From assembly GCA_943356745.1 (NCBI GenBank), contig CALRFT010000003.1, positions 10,853-74,852 on the forward strand: 64,000 nucleotides of DNA, read 5' to 3'. The notes beneath the pieces are model-generated. The model made no database searches and was not told where the DNA came from. It saw only the letters and a program-made list of their open reading frames with translations. A program made the translations under genes and the position numbers. This document shows, piece after piece, positions 1,926 to 27,827 of the stretch. The stretch's first letter is position 1. Each line of letters begins with the position of its first letter. This DNA comes from Parcubacteria group bacterium. Lineage in GTDB: Bacteria > Patescibacteriota > Minisyncoccia > Phycocordibacterales > CSBR16-119.

Positions 1926-3191
1926 TTAATATTGTCGCATTGCAACAGCGCCATCAAGTTTCTTTGTAATATCAATAATTACAGAAACCACAATGAGGAG
2001 TGCTGTTCCTCCAATTGTAAGTGAAGGAATTCCAGTAAGTTGTTGTGTGAGCACAGGAAGTACTGCAATCAACCCAAGGAATAATCCTCCCAAGAATGTA
2101 ATTCGTTTTACAATTTTTTCAATATATTCCTTTGTTGAATTTCCTGGACGAACTCCTGGAATAAAGGCACCTTGCTTTTGAAGATTTGAAGCCATAGCAT
2201 CAGCATCAAAAGTAATAGATGTATAGAAATATGTAAATGCAAATACAAGTGCAAAGTATACAAGTGAGTACACCCATACTGATTGCAAGAACCAGTTAAG
2301 AGCATTCACCACCCCTCCTGCCCAAGACGCACTTGAAGCTGAAAGGAAAGTTACGATAAGTTGTGGGAAAAGAAGGATAGAGAGAGCGAAGATGATTGGC
2401 ATCACTCCCGCCATATTTACCTTCAAAGGAACAAAACTATGTACTGTTCCTGATCCACCTTGTCGTGATGCATTTGCATACGTTGTCGGAATAAGACGTT
2501 CCGCTTCTGTTACAAGAATAACTCCTGCGATAATAAGAAGAGCGAGAACCACAAATGCCAAGTATAGTGGGATTTGTGCAACATCAAATGTGAATGAGAA
2601 CTGACTTATTTGAGATGGGATTGCAGAAACGATACCTGCAAAGATAATCACAGATACCCCGTTTCCAATTCCATACTCAGAAATAAGTTCTCCAAGCCAC
2701 ATAAGGATGAATGATCCAGCGATAATAGAAGCTAAGTTTGTAACTGTTTGAAGAGTTGTTTGATCAACAAGAACTCCTTGTTGTTGCAAAAGAAGCAAAA
2801 GACCAAAACCTTGAATTGCTGCCAATGGGATAGTAATGATTCGAGAGATTTGCGTAAATCGATCTCGTCCAATCGCACCTTCTTCATGGAACATTGATTT
2901 CAACCGAGGTGAAATCACAGTAAGGAGTTGCATTACAATTGAAGATGTAATGAACGGTCCCACTCCAAGAAGAACCAATGACAGTGATGATAAACCTCCT
3001 CCAGAGAAAATGTTTAGAAGTCCAAAGAATTGATTTGTTTGCAATAGACTTTGAAGTTGAAATACATCTACACCTGGAACTGGAATCGAAGACAGCATTC
3101 GAAATACAATCAAAATTCCCAAAAGGAATAAAATCTTGTTTCGAATAGACTTATCTTTTAAAACCACCGTTAGTTTTTGCCAAAATTTCAT
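1926..3191 (-). CDS. secY: preprotein translocase subunit SecY
   Basis: 421 aa, about 10 TM segments, SecY signature region (GxGPFITSSIV..., LGELISEYGIGNGVS). Confidence 0.95.
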   Translation of the reverse strand: MKFWQKLTVVLKDKSIRNKILFLLGILIVFRMLSSIPVPGVDVFQLQSLLQTNQFFGLLNIFSGGGLSSLSLVLLGVGPFITSSIVMQLLTVISPRLKSMFHEEGAIGRDRFTQISRIITIPLAAIQGFGLLLLLQQQGVLVDQTTLQTVTNLASIIAGSFILMWLGELISEYGIGNGVSVIIFAGIVSAIPSQISQFSFTFDVAQIPLYLAFVVLALLIIAGVILVTEAERLIPTTYANASRQGGSGTVHSFVPLKVNMAGVMPIIFALSILLFPQLIVTFLSASSASWAGGVVNALNWFLQSVWVYSLVYFALVFAFTYFYTSITFDADAMASNLQKQGAFIPGVRPGNSTKEYIEKIVKRITFLGGLFLGLIAVLPVLTQQLTGIPSLTIGGTALLIVVSVIIDITKKLDGAVAMRQY

Positions 3192-3256
3192 AATATTAGT
3201 ATATCACCAGGAAACCCTATTGGATATAGCTATCCAATAGATGAACCCTGACGTAA

Positions 3257-3706
3257 TTATGCTTTTACTGTTCCACCAAGCGCTTCAATTTTTGTTTGCG
3301 CACTTTTTGAAACTGCACAACCAATAATAGTAAGCTTCTTTGTTAATTCTCCAGATGCAAGAATTTTCACTTCTGGGAGTTTACCACTCTTTCGTTCAAT
3401 AATTCCTTTTTCTGCAAGAGTTTTTGGAGAAACGATATCGTTATTAGAGAACAACTCAAGTGAAACAAGATTCACTGCAAATGCTTTTTCTTTTGATCCA
3501 TCTACAGTTTGAGCTCGGTTTTTACCGTGACCTCGAAGTTTTGGAAGCTTCTTGATAAGGTCAAGATACGCAGGTCGAATACTGTGTCCAGCTCGTGCCT
3601 TTTGTCCCTTGTGTCCTCGTCCTGAAGTTTTTCCTCGTGTACCTCCTCGTCCTACAAGTTTCTTTTTAGCATTTTTTACCTTTCGTTTAAGAGTATGAGT
3701 TTGCAT
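3257..3706 (-). CDS. rplO: 50S ribosomal protein L15
   Basis: Gly/Arg/Lys-rich N-terminus RGGTRGKTSGRGHKGQKAR typical of L15; operon position. Confidence 0.9.
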   Translation of the reverse strand: MQTHTLKRKVKNAKKKLVGRGGTRGKTSGRGHKGQKARAGHSIRPAYLDLIKKLPKLRGHGKNRAQTVDGSKEKAFAVNLVSLELFSNNDIVSPKTLAEKGIIERKSGKLPEVKILASGELTKKLTIIGCAVSKSAQTKIEALGGTVKA

Positions 3707-3725
3707 AGTCGTGTGAGAAAGTAAA

Positions 3726-4385
3726 TTATTTTACTTCTTGTGTATTACTTGTAGATTCGACCATCTTCCCTGTTGGAAGTTTTTTAAGAGCAAGCATTGT
3801 TGCTCGAACATTGTTGATTGGGTTTTTACTTCGAGTATAAATCTTTGCAGTAACATCTGTCATACCTGCAAGATTGAAAATATCTCGAATCGCTGCTCCT
3901 GACACAAGTCCTTTTCCTTTGTTTGGTGAAAGCCAAATTTGAGATGACTTGTATTTTGCTTCCACTTCATGTGGAATAGAAGCATTTTTTGTTCGAGGAA
4001 TAGTCATCATATGCTTCTTTGCACTTTGAAGTGCTTTGTTGATAGCAAGTGATGTGTCGTTTGACTTACCTGTCCCAAAACCAATTCGTCCATTTTTGTC
4101 TCCGATAAGCATTGCAACAGCAAATGAAAATCGTCGTCCTCCAGCCATAACTCGAGTTACTCGTCGGATACTTACAATTTTTTGATCGAACTCAGGTTTT
4201 ACACGTTCAGGTCGCTTTCCTCCTCGTGGTCCACCTTTTGGTCCACCAAAACGTCGTTGTCCACCAGATTGTGGTGCACTACTTCCTGGAGCTCCTGGAG
4301 CTCGCCGTGGCGCACCTTTTGGAGCAAATTTTGGAGTAAAAGTTCCTCCCGTATTATTTGTTTTTGTTACGTTTTTTGTTTCCAT
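3726..4385 (-). CDS. rpsE: 30S ribosomal protein S5, with Gly/Pro/Arg-rich N-terminal extension
   Basis: RVMAGGRRFSFAVAMLIGDKNGRIGFGTGKS core. The 219-aa length reflects a low-complexity N-terminal extension. Confidence 0.9.
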   Translation of the reverse strand: METKNVTKTNNTGGTFTPKFAPKGAPRRAPGAPGSSAPQSGGQRRFGGPKGGPRGGKRPERVKPEFDQKIVSIRRVTRVMAGGRRFSFAVAMLIGDKNGRIGFGTGKSNDTSLAINKALQSAKKHMMTIPRTKNASIPHEVEAKYKSSQIWLSPNKGKGLVSGAAIRDIFNLAGMTDVTAKIYTRSKNPINNVRATMLALKKLPTGKMVESTSNTQEVK

Positions 4386-4390
4386 ATAAC

Positions 4391-4744
4391 TTAGAATGTT
4401 AGCCCAGCACTTCGTGCTGTGTCTGCCAATGTTTTTACTCGACCAACATACTTGTATCCATTTCTATCAAATACAACTGTATTGATTTTCTTTTCGAGAG
4501 CCAATTTTGCAATTATTTCTCCTACCTTTGCTGCTCGCTCAGCTTTTGATCCATCTTTCATCTTTCGATCAGATGCAGAAACAAGAGTTACCCGAGAAAC
4601 ATCGTCAATCAATTGTGCGTAGATTGATTTGTTTGAACGAAACACTGTAAATCGTGGTCGTTCAGCTGTTCCTTTCACTTGTGAACGAATTCGCTTTTTA
4701 ATTCGGAAACGTTTCGCAAGTTTAATATTTTTTATAGTTTTCAT
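4391..4744 (-). CDS. rplR: 50S ribosomal protein L18
   Basis: [14 protein letters not shown].. motif; 117 aa; operon context. Confidence 0.9.
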
Positions 4745-4765
4745 ATAAATGTATTTAAGAAGATA

Positions 4766-5299
4766 TTATGCAGACTTCTTACCTTGCTTACGTCTAATAT
4801 ATTCTCCAACATATCGAATACCTTTCCCTTTGTATGGTTCTGGTTTCTTAAGTGCTCGAATACTTGCTGCAAATTGTCCGACCTTTTCTTTATCAATTCC
4901 TGTAATAGTCATGTTGTTCTTTTCAATAACAACCTCAAGTCCAGCTGGAACTTCTACACGAACTTCGTGAGAAAATCCAAGGTTCATAACTATAGTTTTT
5001 CCATCAATATTCATACGGTATCCAACTCCTTCAAGAGCAAGTTGCTTTTTGTATGGTTCTACCAAACCAGCAATCATGTTTTTGATATGAGAAGCGTATG
5101 TTCCCCAAAGTGCATATGAGAAATTACTATCATCATTTGGTTTCAATGTGATTTCATTTCCATTGATCATAATATCGATATTATTTTTGAACGGTCGAGA
5201 AAGTTCACCTTTTGAACTTTTCGCTGTGAATACTCCATCAGCAAGTGATACAGTAACACCTTCGGGAATTTGTATGATTTGTTTTCCTACTCGTGACAT
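4766..5299 (-). CDS. rplF: 50S ribosomal protein L6
   Basis: MSRVGKQIIQIPEGVTV.. is the canonical L6 N-terminus. The track ORF extends upstream to 5368, but the internal Met at 5299 gives 177 aa and avoids a long overlap with rpsH. Confidence 0.85.
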   Translation of the reverse strand: MSRVGKQIIQIPEGVTVSLADGVFTAKSSKGELSRPFKNNIDIMINGNEITLKPNDDSNFSYALWGTYASHIKNMIAGLVEPYKKQLALEGVGYRMNIDGKTIVMNLGFSHEVRVEVPAGLEVVIEKNNMTITGIDKEKVGQFAASIRALKKPEPYKGKGIRYVGEYIRRKQGKKSA

Positions 5300-6448: not shown

Positions 6449-7840
6449 TTGTGTATGAAATTGAGTCACAAGAAAAAAATTGCATACACTGGCGGAATTA
6501 TCGCAATTGCAACAATTTCTTTTTTTGTGGTTCACAATCTCAATTTTTCAAAAAGTACTGCAAAAATATACGAGAAGAAACTTCAAAAAACCGAACAATC
6601 TCTTGAAATATTTCAATCACAGGATTTTACACTCTCAAATCAAGATGGTTCCGTACAACACACCATCTCAAAAGAAAATCTTGGTCTTTTTGCAAGTGTC
6701 ATAGATGATCCAAAAACAGGATTTCCAACAATAGATATCTATGATCCCCTTCTTACAGAAGAACTTCAAAACTATAACCAAGAAATGCAGGATGCGTATT
6801 TTAAAATACATGAAGATAACTCTATAGAAATTATTCCTTCAAAACTTGGTGTTCGAGTTGATATTACAAATACAGAGCAATCCATCATTAAAAGTATTAA
6901 ATCGAAACAACACTCTACTGAAATTATATTTGAAAGTATCGAGCCAGATCTCACAACAAAAGAAGCGGAGGAGCTACAAATAAAACACCCTATTGTTTCA
7001 TTCACCACTTATTTCTCTTGTTGTGAAGCACGAGCAAAAAATATACAACAGGTTGCAAAGGTTGTTGATGGAGCACTTGTGTTCCCAGGACAAGAATTTA
7101 ATCTCAATACCCACATCGGAAAACGAACTGAGGACAGAGGCTTTCTTCCAGCAGGAACTATTGTAAAAGGAAGTATGATTGAAACAGTTGGTGGAGGAAT
7201 CAGTCAGTTTGCAACAACTTTTTACAACGCAGTATATTGGGGTGGATTCCAAGATATTAGTCACACACCACACAGTCGATATTTTTCTCGATATCCAGAA
7301 GGAATTGAAGCAACAATCTCATGGCCTGAGCCTCATCTTATTTTTAAAAATAACAGATCTCACGGAATCTTAATACAAACAAAAACCGGAGATACTTATG
7401 TGACTGTAACTTTTTTTGGAAACAATGATGGACGATATATTCAAGGAAAACACAAAGGTGGAGAAACAATAGTCACAACAATTTCAGAAGGTGGAGAGAA
7501 CGCACAAATAGTAGAATCTACCGTTGAAAACAAAACAGATATCTATCCACCAAAAGAGATTTACTATGTTGATGAAAATCTCGAAAAAAATGCAATCTAT
7601 CATAAAACACCGGGACGACACAGTTACTCGGTTGATATCATTCGAACAATCAAAAATAAAGCTGGAGACATTTTAGAATCAAGAAAATGGAAAACATTTT
7701 ATCTTTCAGAAGACAAAGAGTTTATGGTTCAATCTTGCGAGTTTGCACCAGAGCAAAGTATTTGTAAGACAAAGGAAGATGTAGAAAACGAAAAAAAATC
7801 TCTTGAGGAATTCTTTCAAGAATTAGAAAAAAATAGCTAA
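6449..7840 (+). CDS. VanW-family protein (membrane-anchored, cell-wall associated)
   Basis: N-terminal TM segment, then the VanW signature ..VFPGQEFNLN..GGGISQFATTFYNAVYWGG... The start may be the Met two codons downstream (6455). Confidence 0.75.
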   Translation: MCMKLSHKKKIAYTGGIIAIATISFFVVHNLNFSKSTAKIYEKKLQKTEQSLEIFQSQDFTLSNQDGSVQHTISKENLGLFASVIDDPKTGFPTIDIYDPLLTEELQNYNQEMQDAYFKIHEDNSIEIIPSKLGVRVDITNTEQSIIKSIKSKQHSTEIIFESIEPDLTTKEAEELQIKHPIVSFTTYFSCCEARAKNIQQVAKVVDGALVFPGQEFNLNTHIGKRTEDRGFLPAGTIVKGSMIETVGGGISQFATTFYNAVYWGGFQDISHTPHSRYFSRYPEGIEATISWPEPHLIFKNNRSHGILIQTKTGDTYVTVTFFGNNDGRYIQGKHKGGETIVTTISEGGENAQIVESTVENKTDIYPPKEIYYVDENLEKNAIYHKTPGRHSYSVDIIRTIKNKAGDILESRKWKTFYLSEDKEFMVQSCEFAPEQSICKTKEDVENEKKSLEEFFQELEKNS

Positions 7841-24784: not shown

Positions 24785-24979
24785 TTATTTTGCAACGAAT
24801 GGAAGAAGTCCCATAAATCGTGCTCGTTTGATAGCTTCTGCTACATGTCGTTGATGTTTTGCAGAAAGTTGTGTTCGTCGTCGTGGCATGATTTTACCAG
24901 ATGGACTCACAAACATTCGCAAGATTTCAAGATCTTTGTAGTCGATGTGTTTGATATTATTTTGAGTAAAGTAATCCAT
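24785..24979 (-). CDS. rpsR: 30S ribosomal protein S18
   Basis: 64 aa; ..[45 protein letters not shown] is canonical S18. Confidence 0.9.
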
Positions 24980-24999
24980 AATACTAATGTAATTAATTA

Positions 25000-25461
25000 T
25001 TAGAATGGAATATCTTCAGGGTTGATATCCTCTTCAGGATAATCAACAGAATCAATCATTGGTGGTTCTTGTTCTTCTGATCCACCTGCGTTATTTGAAG
25101 AAGAAACCGGAGAAGGTGCTGCACCAGGTGCTCCACCCGTTCTTGGACCAAATTGGAATTTCTCAGCAAGAATTTCTGTTCGGTATTGTTTCTTTCCATC
25201 TTGATCCCAACTTCTGGTTTGAAGTCGTCCTTCAACATAGATTGAACTTCCCTTTTTCATATACTGAGCAATTGTTTCTGCTTGTTTACCAAACGAAACA
25301 ATGTTGTGGTAATCTGTCGCTTCTTGTTTTTGTCGATTTTGGTCATACCAAACTCGATTTGTAGCAACAGAGAAACTCACAACCTTAACTCCAGATGGCA
25401 ATGATTTGAGTTCTGGATCCCGTGTAAGATTTCCGATAATTGTAGCGCGATTTAGATACAT
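25000..25461 (-). CDS. ssb: single-stranded DNA-binding protein
   Basis: OB-fold N-terminus [19 protein letters not shown].., Gly/Pro-rich linker and acidic tail ending ..DIPF. Confidence 0.9.
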
Positions 25462-25537
25462 ATTTGAGACACTATTAGTAAATAATGATTCTATTGTACC
25501 CTATCTTTGCTTGTTGACACAAATAGAGATTTCTATT

Positions 25538-26017
25538 TTAGTCGTTTGTTTCAACAGTAGCTGTTTCTTCAACAAGCTTGTCGATTTCTTGGTCTACAAC
25601 CTCTTCATCAATCGGAGCCGCTACAACTTCTTCTTTTACAATTGAAGTTGATCGAGCTGATTTTGGTGAAAGAAGTGCAGCTACACTTTTCTTTGCAGAA
25701 AGAGTATTTTCTCGAACAGTTGTTACGATAAGGTATCGTAGTAGTGACTTGTTCAAATCAAGTGCCTTTTTAATCTTTGCTACAGAATCAGATTCTGCTT
25801 CAAATTTTACCCACCCAAAGTATGCTTGGTCAAATCGAACGTTTTTTGTATCAATTCGCTTTGTCATTTCATATTGAAGGTTGATAAGTGATGGATATTC
25901 ATCTCCAATCACCTTTGCTTCTACGCCAGCAAGAGTTTCTTTCAATTTTGAAACTTCTGGAGCAAGAGCATCTTCTCCCACAGTTGGAAGAACGAGGTAA
26001 CTTACTTCGTAAATCAT
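25538..26017 (-). CDS. rpsF: 30S ribosomal protein S6 with a C-terminal extension
   Basis: MIYEVSYLVLPTVGED..WVKFEAES.. The start is taken at the internal Met of the track ORF (26017). S6-SSB-S18 is the classic operon. Confidence 0.8.
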   Translation of the reverse strand: MIYEVSYLVLPTVGEDALAPEVSKLKETLAGVEAKVIGDEYPSLINLQYEMTKRIDTKNVRFDQAYFGWVKFEAESDSVAKIKKALDLNKSLLRYLIVTTVRENTLSAKKSVAALLSPKSARSTSIVKEEVVAAPIDEEVVDQEIDKLVEETATVETND

Positions 26018-26054
26018 AGTGATATTTTTGTTAGTAATAAATTGGTCCGAAAAC

Positions 26055-26085
26055 AAAAAACGGACGAAGTCCGTCCGTTTTTTGT
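26055..26085. terminator. hairpin aaaaaacggacg-aagt-cgtccgtttttt
   Basis: Perfect stem, flanked by A-run and T-run. Confidence 0.65.
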
Positions 26086-26194
26086 TACAAGAAGACGCAA
26101 AAGCGCCTGGTACCTATTCACGGACTATGCGTATCCTCATGGATACGAAATAGGTACTACGAGCTGTATACTACCAGAATAGTTCTCGTCTGGC

Positions 26195-26230
26195 AAGAAA
26201 AAGAAAGACCGCGACTTCGTCGCGGTCTTA
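26195..26230 (-). terminator. hairpin aagaccgcgac-ttcgt-cgcggtctt with a T-rich tail on the minus strand, downstream of the 26259..26891 gene
   Basis: GC-rich 10-bp stem. Confidence 0.6.
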
Positions 26231-26258
26231 AGTTCTAAGAACTAATTTTTAAGAAATA

Positions 26259-26891
26259 CTAAGATCCTGAAACCTCAGCACTCTTCTTGCGAACACACCC
26301 GAAAAACCAGTAGCCACCCCAGCCATTGTCATTCCGATAGATATGCACCTTGCGCTTACCATCCCAACGGCCGAAACACGCGTAGCAAACTTTACCATTC
26401 TTGTCTCGCCACTGAGTGGCATTTGGAATAGTGTCAGCAAGTGCAGGGTCTGCTTCGTTGAGAGCACACAGTGTGATTGGATCAACAAGCACGAAGCCTG
26501 CTTTGTCGACCTCTTGTTCAAGAGCGTCGACTGAAAGCTGTTGTTTGAAAGGAATGAGATAGAGGTCTACCTCTTCACCTTCTCCTATCGGCATCACCTT
26601 CACAACAGTATTTTCTGTGTACTGTGTGCAACCTGTGGCATCGATAGCTTGTTGTGGAGATCGACTTCGGTTCACCTTTACCTTGCGGATGATGAAATTT
26701 GAGATAGCTTCAACACGTGTACGGAACACTTGAAAGTGTTCTTCAGCAAGCTCGGATTGTCCGAGAACTGTTTGTACAGCTTCCGAATTGAATTCTCCTG
26801 CGTGCTTTTCAAGCAAAGCTCGGTAGTTTGCAACAGCTTTGTCAATCTGGCCTTTGGTCATTTTTTTGATTTCTGATGGGGTCATTTTCAT
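26259..26891 (-). CDS. hypothetical protein (orphan, noticeably higher GC than neighbours)
   Basis: 210 aa with no family recognised. It is C/W/G-rich near the C-terminus (..CYACFGRWDGKRKVHIYRNDNGWGGYWFFGC..). It has its own promoter-like TTGACA element and its own terminator. Confidence 0.5.
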   Translation of the reverse strand: MKMTPSEIKKMTKGQIDKAVANYRALLEKHAGEFNSEAVQTVLGQSELAEEHFQVFRTRVEAISNFIIRKVKVNRSRSPQQAIDATGCTQYTENTVVKVMPIGEGEEVDLYLIPFKQQLSVDALEQEVDKAGFVLVDPITLCALNEADPALADTIPNATQWRDKNGKVCYACFGRWDGKRKVHIYRNDNGWGGYWFFGCVRKKSAEVSGS

Positions 26892-26996
26892 GGCGTCATC
26901 TGTTTGTTTTTAAATAACTATACCCGCTTTGTTTGAATACAAAACCTCGTAGTTTGATATTATATTGTCATGATATATATAATTTGTCAATATATT

Positions 26997-27026
26997 CAAA
27001 AGCGAAGCCGGAGGCTTCGCTTTTTA
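26997..27026 (-). terminator. hairpin aaaagcgaagcc-ggag-gcttcgcttttt overlapping the tatD stop
   Basis: Perfect 10-bp stem plus T-run. Confidence 0.6.
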
Positions 27027-27827
27027 GTTTGGTATCCCAAACACTCGTTTTCGATTTTCTGCAAAAACTGTTTGAACCTCCTCGAGAGAAAGACCTTTCA
27101 GCTCTGCAATTTTTTTGTATACTTCTTCCACCATATACGGTTCACATCGTTTTCCTCTGTGAGATTTTGGTGCCACAAACGGTGCGTCTGTTTCTGCCAT
27201 CATCATATCAAGCGGAACATGTCTCACCACTTCATCATAGTCACTTGTGATTGTAATCACTCCAGTAAAAGAAACTGTAAATCCAATCTCAAGAAATCTG
27301 TCCGCAATTTCTTTAGTTCCTACGAAAAAGTGTGAGTTACCTTTGAGTTTTGGATTTTCTTTTTTGTATTCTTCCAAAATTTCAAGTGTTTCAAGATATG
27401 CATCATATGAGTTTTGACTCGGACGAATATGCAACATGAGCGGAAGATCAAGATACAAGGCAAGTTCGATTTGTTGTTTGAATACTTCTTTTTGCGTATC
27501 CTTTCCCACATGGTCATTTGGGTCGATTCTGAAATAATCGAGTCCACACTCACCAATCGCAACAACTTTTGGATTCATCGCAATATCTTTGTAAAACTCA
27601 GTATCAAATTCTTCTTCGGTTACATTATCAGGATGAAGCCCAACACAGGCGAAAATATGTTCATGTTCACCTGCTAGACTTTTTGCTTTTTCTGAGGTTG
27701 CCTTATCTACCCCAACACAGATAGTTCCAATACTCTTTTCTTTATGGGATTCAATCACCACATTCAAATCGCCATCGAAAGAATCGAGGTTGAAGTGGCT
27801 ATGAATATCAAAAAAGTTGTATTTCAT
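27024..27827 (-). CDS. tatD: TatD-family metal-dependent hydrolase (DNase)
   Basis: MKYNFFDIHSHFN.. (HxH), ..LHIR.. , ..METDAPF.. are TatD/amidohydrolase motifs. Start is at the internal Met (27827); the track ORF extends to 27881. Confidence 0.8.
   Translation of the reverse strand: MKYNFFDIHSHFNLDSFDGDLNVVIESHKEKSIGTICVGVDKATSEKAKSLAGEHEHIFACVGLHPDNVTEEEFDTEFYKDIAMNPKVVAIGECGLDYFRIDPNDHVGKDTQKEVFKQQIELALYLDLPLMLHIRPSQNSYDAYLETLEILEEYKKENPKLKGNSHFFVGTKEIADRFLEIGFTVSFTGVITITSDYDEVVRHVPLDMMMAETDAPFVAPKSHRGKRCEPYMVEEVYKKIAELKGLSLEEVQTVFAENRKRVFGIPN

Follow-up and report, generated by a model that had tools for sequence, protein, structure and literature searches.

A variable-protein gene of a diversity-generating retroelement standing alone beside the rpsF operon of a Parcubacteria group bacterium

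Between tatD and the rpsF-ssb-rpsR-efp block of a Parcubacteria group bacterium lies a gene that no curated library names, and the question it raises is what such a gene is and how it came to stand there alone. It occupies positions 26259..26891 on the minus strand of a 64,000-nucleotide (nt) stretch of contig CALRFT010000003.1 (assembly GCA_943356745.1, positions 10,853 to 74,852), hereafter the window, and encodes a protein of 210 amino acids (aa). Its 5' neighbour is tatD (27024..27827) and its 3' neighbour the rpsF block; PF01026 and PF01250 are found in syntenic orthologues of the flanking genes at the related locus L001. An initial annotation, made from the sequence by itself, had placed a 210-aa open reading frame (ORF) with a Cys/Trp/Gly-rich C-terminus between the rpsF operon and tatD, which is confirmed here, and had taken it for an orphan gene, likely horizontally acquired. 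The intact ORF and its homologues lead to a different identification: the product is a variable protein, the target of a diversity-generating retroelement (DGR) such as is known from bacteria of the candidate phyla radiation (CPR), here without a retroelement of its own. The reading that we consider most likely, with a probability of roughly 0.55, is that it is a stranded relic target, still under selection, whose variable region is frozen.

The protein has no match in Pfam (E <= 10), NCBIfam, PADLOC or PDB sequences, a search of PHROGs returned noise only (E = 0.081 and 0.31), and a profile of 50 family members gave a single match among PDB sequences, at E = 4.8. The initial statement that the protein has no recognisable family therefore holds, but its orphan status does not. 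A word-indexed protein search recovered 206 homologues (E<=1e-3), mostly full-length proteins of ~200-230 aa with 50-60% identity and nearly all unnamed, and a profile built from 50 homologues reached 1,503 clusters at 50% identity, 505 of them at E <= 1e-30. Every family locus recovered from GTDB representatives belongs to a metagenome-assembled genome of Patescibacteria (CPR), the host groups being Paceibacterota, Nomurabacteria, Taylorbacteria, Doudnabacteria, Komeilibacteria and bins labelled Saccharibacteria. Insertion sites vary from genome to genome (for example, between murein ligase and NIF3 genes in L002, between nusG and rplK in P0069, and between tatD and rpsF in the window); the family belongs to an element that lands at different sites in different genomes.

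In a DGR, a reverse transcriptase (RT) copies the RNA of a template repeat (TR) and misreads its adenines, and the cDNA replaces the variable region (VR) of a target gene. The parts of such a system are present beside homologues of the window gene. On two long contigs, the distant homologues P0084 and P0069 are followed by a bAvd (PF22296) gene and an RVT_1 reverse transcriptase. At L002, where the RT carries the motifs LGNLTSQ and YADD, the last 101 nt of the gene recur 454 nt downstream at 84% identity, and each mismatch faces an adenine of the downstream copy. The conserved 3' end of this VR/TR repeat, used as a probe on GTDB genomes, yielded 29 loci, the majority of which hold target, TR, Avd (on the opposite strand) and RT together; the window protein is 41-55% identical over aa 3-202 to the targets of the cassette loci. 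The TR of complete cassettes is ~100 nt long and full of AAC codons. Family VRs end in ...CGCAAG, usually with the stop codon immediately after, and TRs end in ...CGCAAC, the base that follows the shared 3' block being G in the VR and C in the TR; three of 15 cassettes have a TR that departs from its VR within the last 4 nt. Twelve TR/VR pairs were compared: in seven, all of the 12-21 mismatches fall at TR adenines, two have only 1-2 off-adenine mismatches, and three are confounded by indels or masked bases. The adenine-only mismatches in these relatives therefore identify the family as DGR variable proteins, and by sequence comparison the window gene is to be assigned to it as the variable protein of a Patescibacteria-type DGR.

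The tail that had drawn attention as a Cys/Trp/Gly-rich module is accordingly the VR of a DGR target. It spans 26286..26387 (minus strand; 34 codons, aa 169-202; CYACFGRWDGKRKVHIYRNDNGWGGYWFFGCVRK) and is collinear with the VRs and TRs of 15 cassettes. In the family consensus, WCxAxFxRWxGxRxVxVxRxDxxWxGxWWFAGVRK, fixed scaffold residues alternate with free positions. The VR closes with an invariant 3' block (26286..26308, minus strand; TGGTTTTTCGGGTGTGTTCGCAA) at the end shared by TR and VR, ahead of the position at which homology ends; the window, L001, L036 and a paralogue (L032-35) all have exactly this block. An extension of eight codons, KSAEVSGS, plus the stop codon follows the VR (26259..26285, minus strand) and is common only to the closest clade.

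Close relatives reveal how this VR has changed. The tatD-gene-rpsF arrangement, with the gene alone, recurs in L001 and L036 (90% aa identity, flanks 95-98%) and in L037 and L038 (70%), and the ORF is intact in the window and in all four; in L002 and P0069 the gene lies elsewhere. Over the 102-nt VR, the window and L001 differ at 14 nt, 12 of which fall at adenines of the consensus of 15 TRs from the family (adenine at 27 of its 102 positions; P = 8e-7 by the hypergeometric test), and the remaining two are adenines in some family TRs. The changes amount to 15 nonsynonymous and 0 synonymous, with three codons altered at two bases each, and ~95 nt upstream and ~330 nt downstream of the VR are nearly identical. 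This pattern, seen in sequence, points to a VR that was written by a DGR in this lineage. When it was written is less readily dated: the downstream flank is ~99% identical to the more distant L037 as well, where tatD and metG stand at a synonymous divergence (dS) of 0.34-0.46, so that flank identity is no clock and the VR alleles could be old. Outside the VR, the ratio of nonsynonymous to synonymous divergence (dN/dS) is 0.19 against L001 and 0.26 against L037 (0.02-0.10 for the neighbours), which places the gene under purifying selection. Together with the intact ORF, these values indicate that the gene is probably functional.

DGRs are abundant in CPR bacteria, and their targets there are reported to have neither recognisable domains nor a transmembrane segment (PMC5758913, PMC8144416); in five CPR DGRs, Wu et al. 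found ribosomal protein genes between the DGR genes (PMC5758913). The present family occurs in the same host group as the 'CPR set' of Wu et al. (2017; PMC5758913) and as 'DGR clade 2' of Roux et al. (2021; PMC8144416). Its loci share the parts of those systems, namely a small target with a C-terminal VR, a TR, Avd and RT, with adenine-specific mismatches; the target likewise has no recognisable domain or transmembrane segment, and the proximity to ribosomal protein genes is also matched, P0069 lying between nusG and rplK. The window locus differs in that it holds the target only and is missing the hairpin that follows the VR in the family at large. Another point of comparison is the DGR of Bordetella phage BPP-1 (Mtd; Guo et al., 2011, PMC3240598), with the same TR-to-VR transfer and adenine mutagenesis, an invariant block at the 3' end of the VR and, as in the family at large, a hairpin directly after it. 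There the target is a phage tail-fibre gene, whereas here it is a cellular gene, and the family hairpin, made up of two helices, has a higher AT content than the GC-rich 8-bp stem of BPP-1. Treponema denticola TvpA (PDB 2y3c; PMC4891356, PMC5758913) provides a precedent for one RT and TR serving far-off targets. However, TvpA is 9% identical to the window protein, only TvpA has an FGE-sulfatase-type domain recognised by Pfam, and its remote targets match a known TR, whereas the window target has no known TR. The window protein has no Pfam match at E <= 10 to target families of the FGE-sulfatase or DUF1566 type, and the motif WWFAG was not found in the DGR literature searched.

With regard to structure, an AlphaFold2 model computed from a 50-sequence alignment has a mean predicted local distance difference test score (pLDDT) of 87.6. 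It divides the protein into a highly conserved N-terminal helical domain (aa 13-64; 26700..26855, minus strand), with predicted helices at 13-31, 36-44 and 46-64 and a pLDDT of ~80, and a C-terminal alpha/beta domain (aa 66-204; 26280..26696, minus strand) with a predicted C-type-lectin-like fold at a pLDDT of 94-98. Reading of the 210-aa sequence gave no signal peptide, membrane span or hydrophobic N-terminus, in agreement with published descriptions of CPR targets (PMC8144416). Foldseek scores against the PDB were weak (E 0.07-0.5, target TM score ~0.4), with C-type lectin domains dominating (mincle, LOX-1, CD23, langerin); a viral structure library returned herpesvirus C-type-lectin-like proteins and no phage relative, and C-type-lectin-like matches predominate in all three structure searches. 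With moderate confidence, then, the model suggests that the VR-bearing domain is a compact, divergent C-type-lectin-like fold. Because of this fold and the logic of DGR targets, the protein would be expected to bind a ligand; the earlier proposal of a small metal- or ligand-binding module is thus consistent with the model as far as ligands in general are concerned, but metal binding is unsupported. Bacterial adhesin tips with C-type lectin-like domains (the C-terminal domain of Bdellovibrio Bd2740, 8oks, and the D-domains of intimin and invasin) are 5-13% identical, without sequence similarity. They are displayed at the surface on long stalks, whereas the window protein has 210 aa, a helical N-terminal domain and no export signal. 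No assignment of a lectin-like fold to this target family was found in the DGR literature searched. It has been expected that new, compact versions of the C-type lectin fold lie hidden among unclassified CPR targets (PMC8144416), and the model supports this.

A related domain occurs in another setting. The paralogue at L033:3998-4486 (also L032, L034 and L035) has 162 aa, and its helical N-terminal domain is swapped for a lipoprotein-type signal, MKYIIAVFTLFLCAVSC; its lectin-like domain is 53% identical to that of the window protein, and the final 23 nt of its VR are the same as in the window. It stands alone between glutamate dehydrogenase-like and mnmA-like genes (names read from sequence), and its GC equals that of the host (0.40 vs 0.38). 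Nearby, L033:1578-2507 is a 309-aa ORF composed of a tandem ~34-aa motif (…YQILQERL…QIEIRMIELNK…) with self-matches at ~80% DNA identity.

No machinery that could rewrite the VR was detected around the window gene. Searches of the 64-kb window with the L002 proteins by tblastn gave chance matches only for a DGR-type RT (E >= 1.5) and for Avd (E >= 3.9), and blastn-short gave no second copy of the VR that could be a TR. An adenine-tolerant scan of the same 64 kb, in which a template A was allowed to match any base, found no TR either; the best non-self position was compatible at 78 of 104 nt but identical at just 33, in A-rich sequence. On one side of the gene, then, at least 26 kb are free of retroelement parts, and on the other at least 37 kb. 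The clade's 23-mer was also used beyond the window. It recovered no TR with the clade's 3' block from GTDB representatives, among which the window strain is not included, only VRs and no TR from JGI metagenomes harbouring the L036 strain, and no match at all from IMG/VR contigs.

A second element of complete cassettes is missing as well. Directly after the VR, the family carries an element of ~55 nt with the consensus GTAGTnCTTAG...TTGGTCACT...CTTTGACCTTTG, exemplified by L027:4616-4672, L014:3779-3837 and L029:7490-7545 (within L002-L031). Its nhmmer profile matches 25 loci, 17 of them at E < 1e-3 and five outside the set from which the profile was built, but finds no match beside the window gene or in L001, L036 or L037. 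Since the helices shift register, RNAalifold on a MAFFT alignment returned no consensus pairs, and each sequence was instead folded against shuffles. As DNA, the element is a two-helix hairpin with z scores of -2.3 to -4.7 in 10 of 16 elements. By eye, the outer stems covary (GGTCA:TGACC, GGCCA:TGGCC, GTTCA:TGAAC), as do the inner stems (TGTC:GACA, GGTC:GACC, GGGTCC:GGATCC). By comparison, the 41 nt after the window VR fold no better than shuffles (z -1.5), with +0.75 for the equivalent in L037, and the only strong inverted repeat starts 56 nt past the VR (26229..26205) and resembles an ordinary terminator. The clade's own post-VR sequence was considered as a substitute hairpin and rejected, as the changes seen in L037 disrupt and restore pairs in equal number and its z score there is positive.

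Comparison of cassette copies with lone or decayed ones (L015, L023, L030 and L031, together with L008, whose VR is frameshifted, and L025, where a C-terminal RT fragment remains) provides a context for this absence. Lone or decayed copies have weaker post-VR hairpins (one-sided Mann-Whitney p = 0.005), and their median GC at third codon positions (GC3) outside the VR is 0.42 vs 0.72 for cassette copies (p = 0.02); the window gene, at 0.40, is within the lone class. The lone copies suggest a path of ageing after loss of the retroelement in which the hairpin decays, GC3 falls toward that of the host and scaffold residues start to change, the protein itself staying under selection. Descriptions of the two-helix post-VR element and of this ageing pattern were not found in the DGR literature searched; along with the lectin-like fold of the family, they appear not to have been met there before.

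Several cassettes deserve mention in their own right. At L003:635-2574, one TR serves two tandem targets with different VRs, with 12 and 13 adenine mismatches and none elsewhere. Nomurabacteria RIFOXYB1_FULL_39_16 holds two cassettes on separate contigs (L024:6662-8000 and L027) with nearly identical TRs; at L024, the post-VR element is present at 6662-6721, but tblastn detected no family target upstream of it, and the target there may have a different body. In L025:2716-3805, the target is directly followed by the C-terminal third of an RT, and TR and Avd are not present, and L008:5042-5691 is a lone target with a one-base insertion that causes a frameshift within its VR. The latter two are decaying DGRs in other Patescibacteria.

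These observations fit together most readily if the window gene is a relic. In complete cassettes, the cDNA would replace the last 34 codons of the target, randomising about a dozen surface positions on the C-type-lectin-like scaffold while the interleaved Cys, Phe, Trp, Arg and Val scaffold residues remain fixed. In the window lineage, the RT and TR would have been lost or would never have arrived with the target gene, and the VR would then have been frozen. The target would be kept as a binding protein of fixed specificity by purifying selection as its composition drifts toward that of the host. The absence of the post-VR hairpin beside the window gene suggests such a history, and the weak hairpins and low non-VR GC3 of the lone class, both shared by the window gene, point the same way. 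Further support comes from VR stasis and decay: the VR is the same in four of four members of the P0002 cluster, and in L037 it has 11 changes off the adenine positions, two scaffold Trp to Cys among them. The JGI metagenomes with the L036 strain, in which no clade-type TR was found, and the other lone or decayed examples (the L008 frameshift, the L025 RT fragment) likewise suggest loss.

Other considerations weigh against a relic. Adenine-type differences separate the window VR from that of L001, although the flanks are ~98% identical, and they show that retrohoming took place at some point after the two alleles parted, as is expected if RT and TR persist elsewhere. The window covers 26 kb and 37 kb around the gene on a contig of 166,758 nt, and most of the genome is unseen. 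The exact 23-mer is slightly too long as a probe, as a TR may differ from its VR in the last 4 nt, as it does in three of the 15 cassettes. Members of the P0002 cluster possibly come from one site, so that their identical VRs are perhaps not independent, and the comparisons of lone and cassette copies use 6-12 phylogenetically non-independent loci, with L013, of unknown status, counted as a cassette.

The principal alternative is that the gene is an active remote target, its VR being rewritten in trans by a cassette more than 26 kb or 37 kb away or on another contig. We regard this as clearly less probable than a relic, but as a serious contender. It accounts well for the VR itself: all 14 differences from L001 lie at positions that are adenine in family TRs, and there are 0 third-position differences over the 34 VR codons, vs a dS of 0.18 in the rest of the gene, a result compatible with a single TR as the template of both VRs. 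The window VR retains its scaffold residues and its reading frame, and the 53%-identical paralogue carries the unusual 3' block TGGTTTTTCGGGTGTGTTCGCAA exactly, as if one TR keeps the register. In other DGRs, targets are known to lie apart from the RT, at distances of up to millions of bases (PMC5758913), and two cassettes on different contigs coexist in Nomurabacteria RIFOXYB1_FULL_39_16 (L024 and L027). On the other hand, a TR with the clade's 3' block was found neither in GTDB representatives nor in JGI metagenomes or IMG/VR. The clade would also have to use recognition cues other than the usual post-VR hairpin, a structure required for efficient retrohoming in BPP-1, the one system tested (PMC3240598). 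No member of the P0002 cluster departs from the others in its VR. The paralogue VR differs from that of the window at many non-adenine positions, so that a single TR cannot be the template for both over their full length. In addition, the 2017 survey saw remote targets solely outside the CPR set, in which DGRs tended to have one adjacent target (PMC5758913), and the near-identity of the downstream flank extends to L037 and is no clock for recent rewriting. A more specific form of this proposal, that the rpsF-operon locus holds the first remote, trans-serviced target in Patescibacteria, recognised without a hairpin and with its retroelement tens of kilobases or more away, is unlikely in our estimation. 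If the gene is diversified in trans, remote targeting extends to the CPR, a modest extension of the earlier survey (PMC5758913), and the finding would bear on bacteria in which DGR targets are considered relevant to dependence on other cells.

Far less probable is a decaying, functionless, pseudogene-like remnant kept by chance. Some lone relatives are broken (the frameshift in L008; the scaffold Trp to Cys changes and indels in L037), and the gene evolves faster than its neighbours, being 70% identical at the aa level to its L037 counterpart vs 94-100% for neighbouring proteins. Even so, the window, L001, L036, L037 and L038 all retain an unbroken ORF, and non-VR dN/dS stays at 0.19-0.26, well below 1, over dS values up to 0.53. 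The terminator and the TTGACA of the promoter-like stretch are both conserved.

The composition of the gene, from which a recent arrival had been argued, calls for separate treatment. The excess of about 10 points in GC, noted by eye, is borne out by calculation: GC is 0.464, vs a mean of 0.367 (standard deviation 0.029) for window ORFs (z = 3.3), the highest among 61 non-overlapping ORFs, and GC3 is 0.431 vs 0.251 (z = 3.3). As GC3 is raised too, the excess sits in codon choice and not only in amino-acid content. The same is seen across the family, with target GC above that of the host flanks in 24 of 25 independent loci, whereas RT and Avd of the family cassettes are at or below host level. 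The contrast in GC3 between target and RT is significant over 10 pairs (Wilcoxon p = 0.014). It can be striking within a single cassette, where the two genes lie ~1 kb apart: 0.85 vs 0.28 in L014 (target 3850-4455, RT 1983-2930) and 0.81 vs 0.32 in L027 (target 4674-5270, RT 2846-3862). Two explanations of the high GC were discarded, namely adenine depletion, as third-position A and T are equally depleted, and a mark of the entire cassette, as GC in RT and Avd does not exceed that of the host. High GC is thus a trait of the whole target-gene family, not a sign of recent arrival at the window locus. The window gene, with a GC3 of 0.43 in a host at 0.25, looks like the partly ameliorated state of a gene that was initially much GC-richer.

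The remaining alternative, recently acquired orphan cargo that derives from a phage, toxin or defence system and has a small metal-binding tail, draws on GC and GC3 values that are extremes or near-extremes of the window, the gene's own terminator, the lack of a curated family match and the differing contexts of family members across genomes, but it is the least probable of all, given a very large family (206 homologues; 1,503 clusters), a locus retained in relatives whose neighbouring genes reach a dS of 0.46, no support from PHROGs, PADLOC or viral structures, a window-specific VR end unmatched in IMG/VR contigs, and tail Cys, Trp and Gly residues that follow the alternating scaffold/variable pattern of DGRs and no metal-site pattern. 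What stands of the horizontal acquisition first proposed is a foreign composition and membership in an element with varied sites; the arrival was not recent, as the gene has been resident between tatD and rpsF while tatD and metG diverged to a dS of 0.34-0.46 (vs L037). The phage-derived, toxin-like or defence assignment falls, with no PHROGs or PADLOC family, no toxin and no viral-structure support.

An unannotated hypothetical protein thereby becomes a DGR variable protein, one of a family of ~1,500 clusters that no curated library names. For annotation, the practical lesson is that a lone, GC-rich, small Patescibacteria gene ending in ...W.F.G.VRK should be compared with DGR variable regions.

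The expression signals attributed to the gene are partly borne out. Its own terminator is present as an intrinsic-type, terminator-like hairpin at 26229..26205 (minus strand; 11 pairs, seven of them G-C, a 3-nt loop and the tail TCTTTTTCTT), which is 100% conserved in L001 and L037. Upstream, an AT-rich promoter-like stretch at 26959..26999 (minus strand; from sequence and a promoter scan) includes the near-consensus element that had been pointed out, a literal TTGACA at 26990..26985 (minus strand). A canonical -10 at canonical spacing is wanting, as the closest perfect TATAAT is 20 nt off. The best minus-strand site in the scan is TTGAAT-18-TATCAT (26999..26970; 9 of 12 matches), and the 1.2-kb region contains three promoter-like sites vs 1.5 +/- 1.3 expected. 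The TTGACA is preserved in L001 despite adjacent insertions totalling ~70 nt. A promoter belonging to the gene itself is thus plausible. The region's top promoter-like match, TTGATA-18-TATAAT (11 of 12; plus strand, 26954-26983), faces away from the gene into the 3' end of tatD, to which it is antisense.

Downstream, the comparison with L037 yields a mosaic. Across window 24785-26258 (L037:6141-7616), the rpsF leader, rpsF, ssb and rpsR are near-identical (dS 0-0.04), with efp and recA at dS 0.16-0.17 and tatD and metG at 0.34-0.46. To judge from these values, a recombination breakpoint between the window and L037 lineages lies near the 3' end of the target gene.

The rpsF leader region (26018-26204, minus strand), which runs from the terminator of the target gene to the rpsF start codon, is itself highly structured, and the 245-nt intergenic region before rpsF has a fold z score of -7.4. 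An Rfam scan of the whole window at gathering thresholds returned three tRNAs and nothing else, and a permissive scan of 25950-27050 matched no family to the leader, with nothing near any threshold. The leader contains a promoter-like TTGCCA-17-TAGTAT with an upstream TG at 26196..26168, then nested hairpins and a terminator-like hairpin at 26076..26058, ~40 nt upstream of the rpsF ATG. It is ~99-100% identical in L001 and L037, although nearby genes reach a dS of 0.46, and could be a ribosomal-protein autoregulatory attenuator for the rpsF-ssb-rpsR operon.

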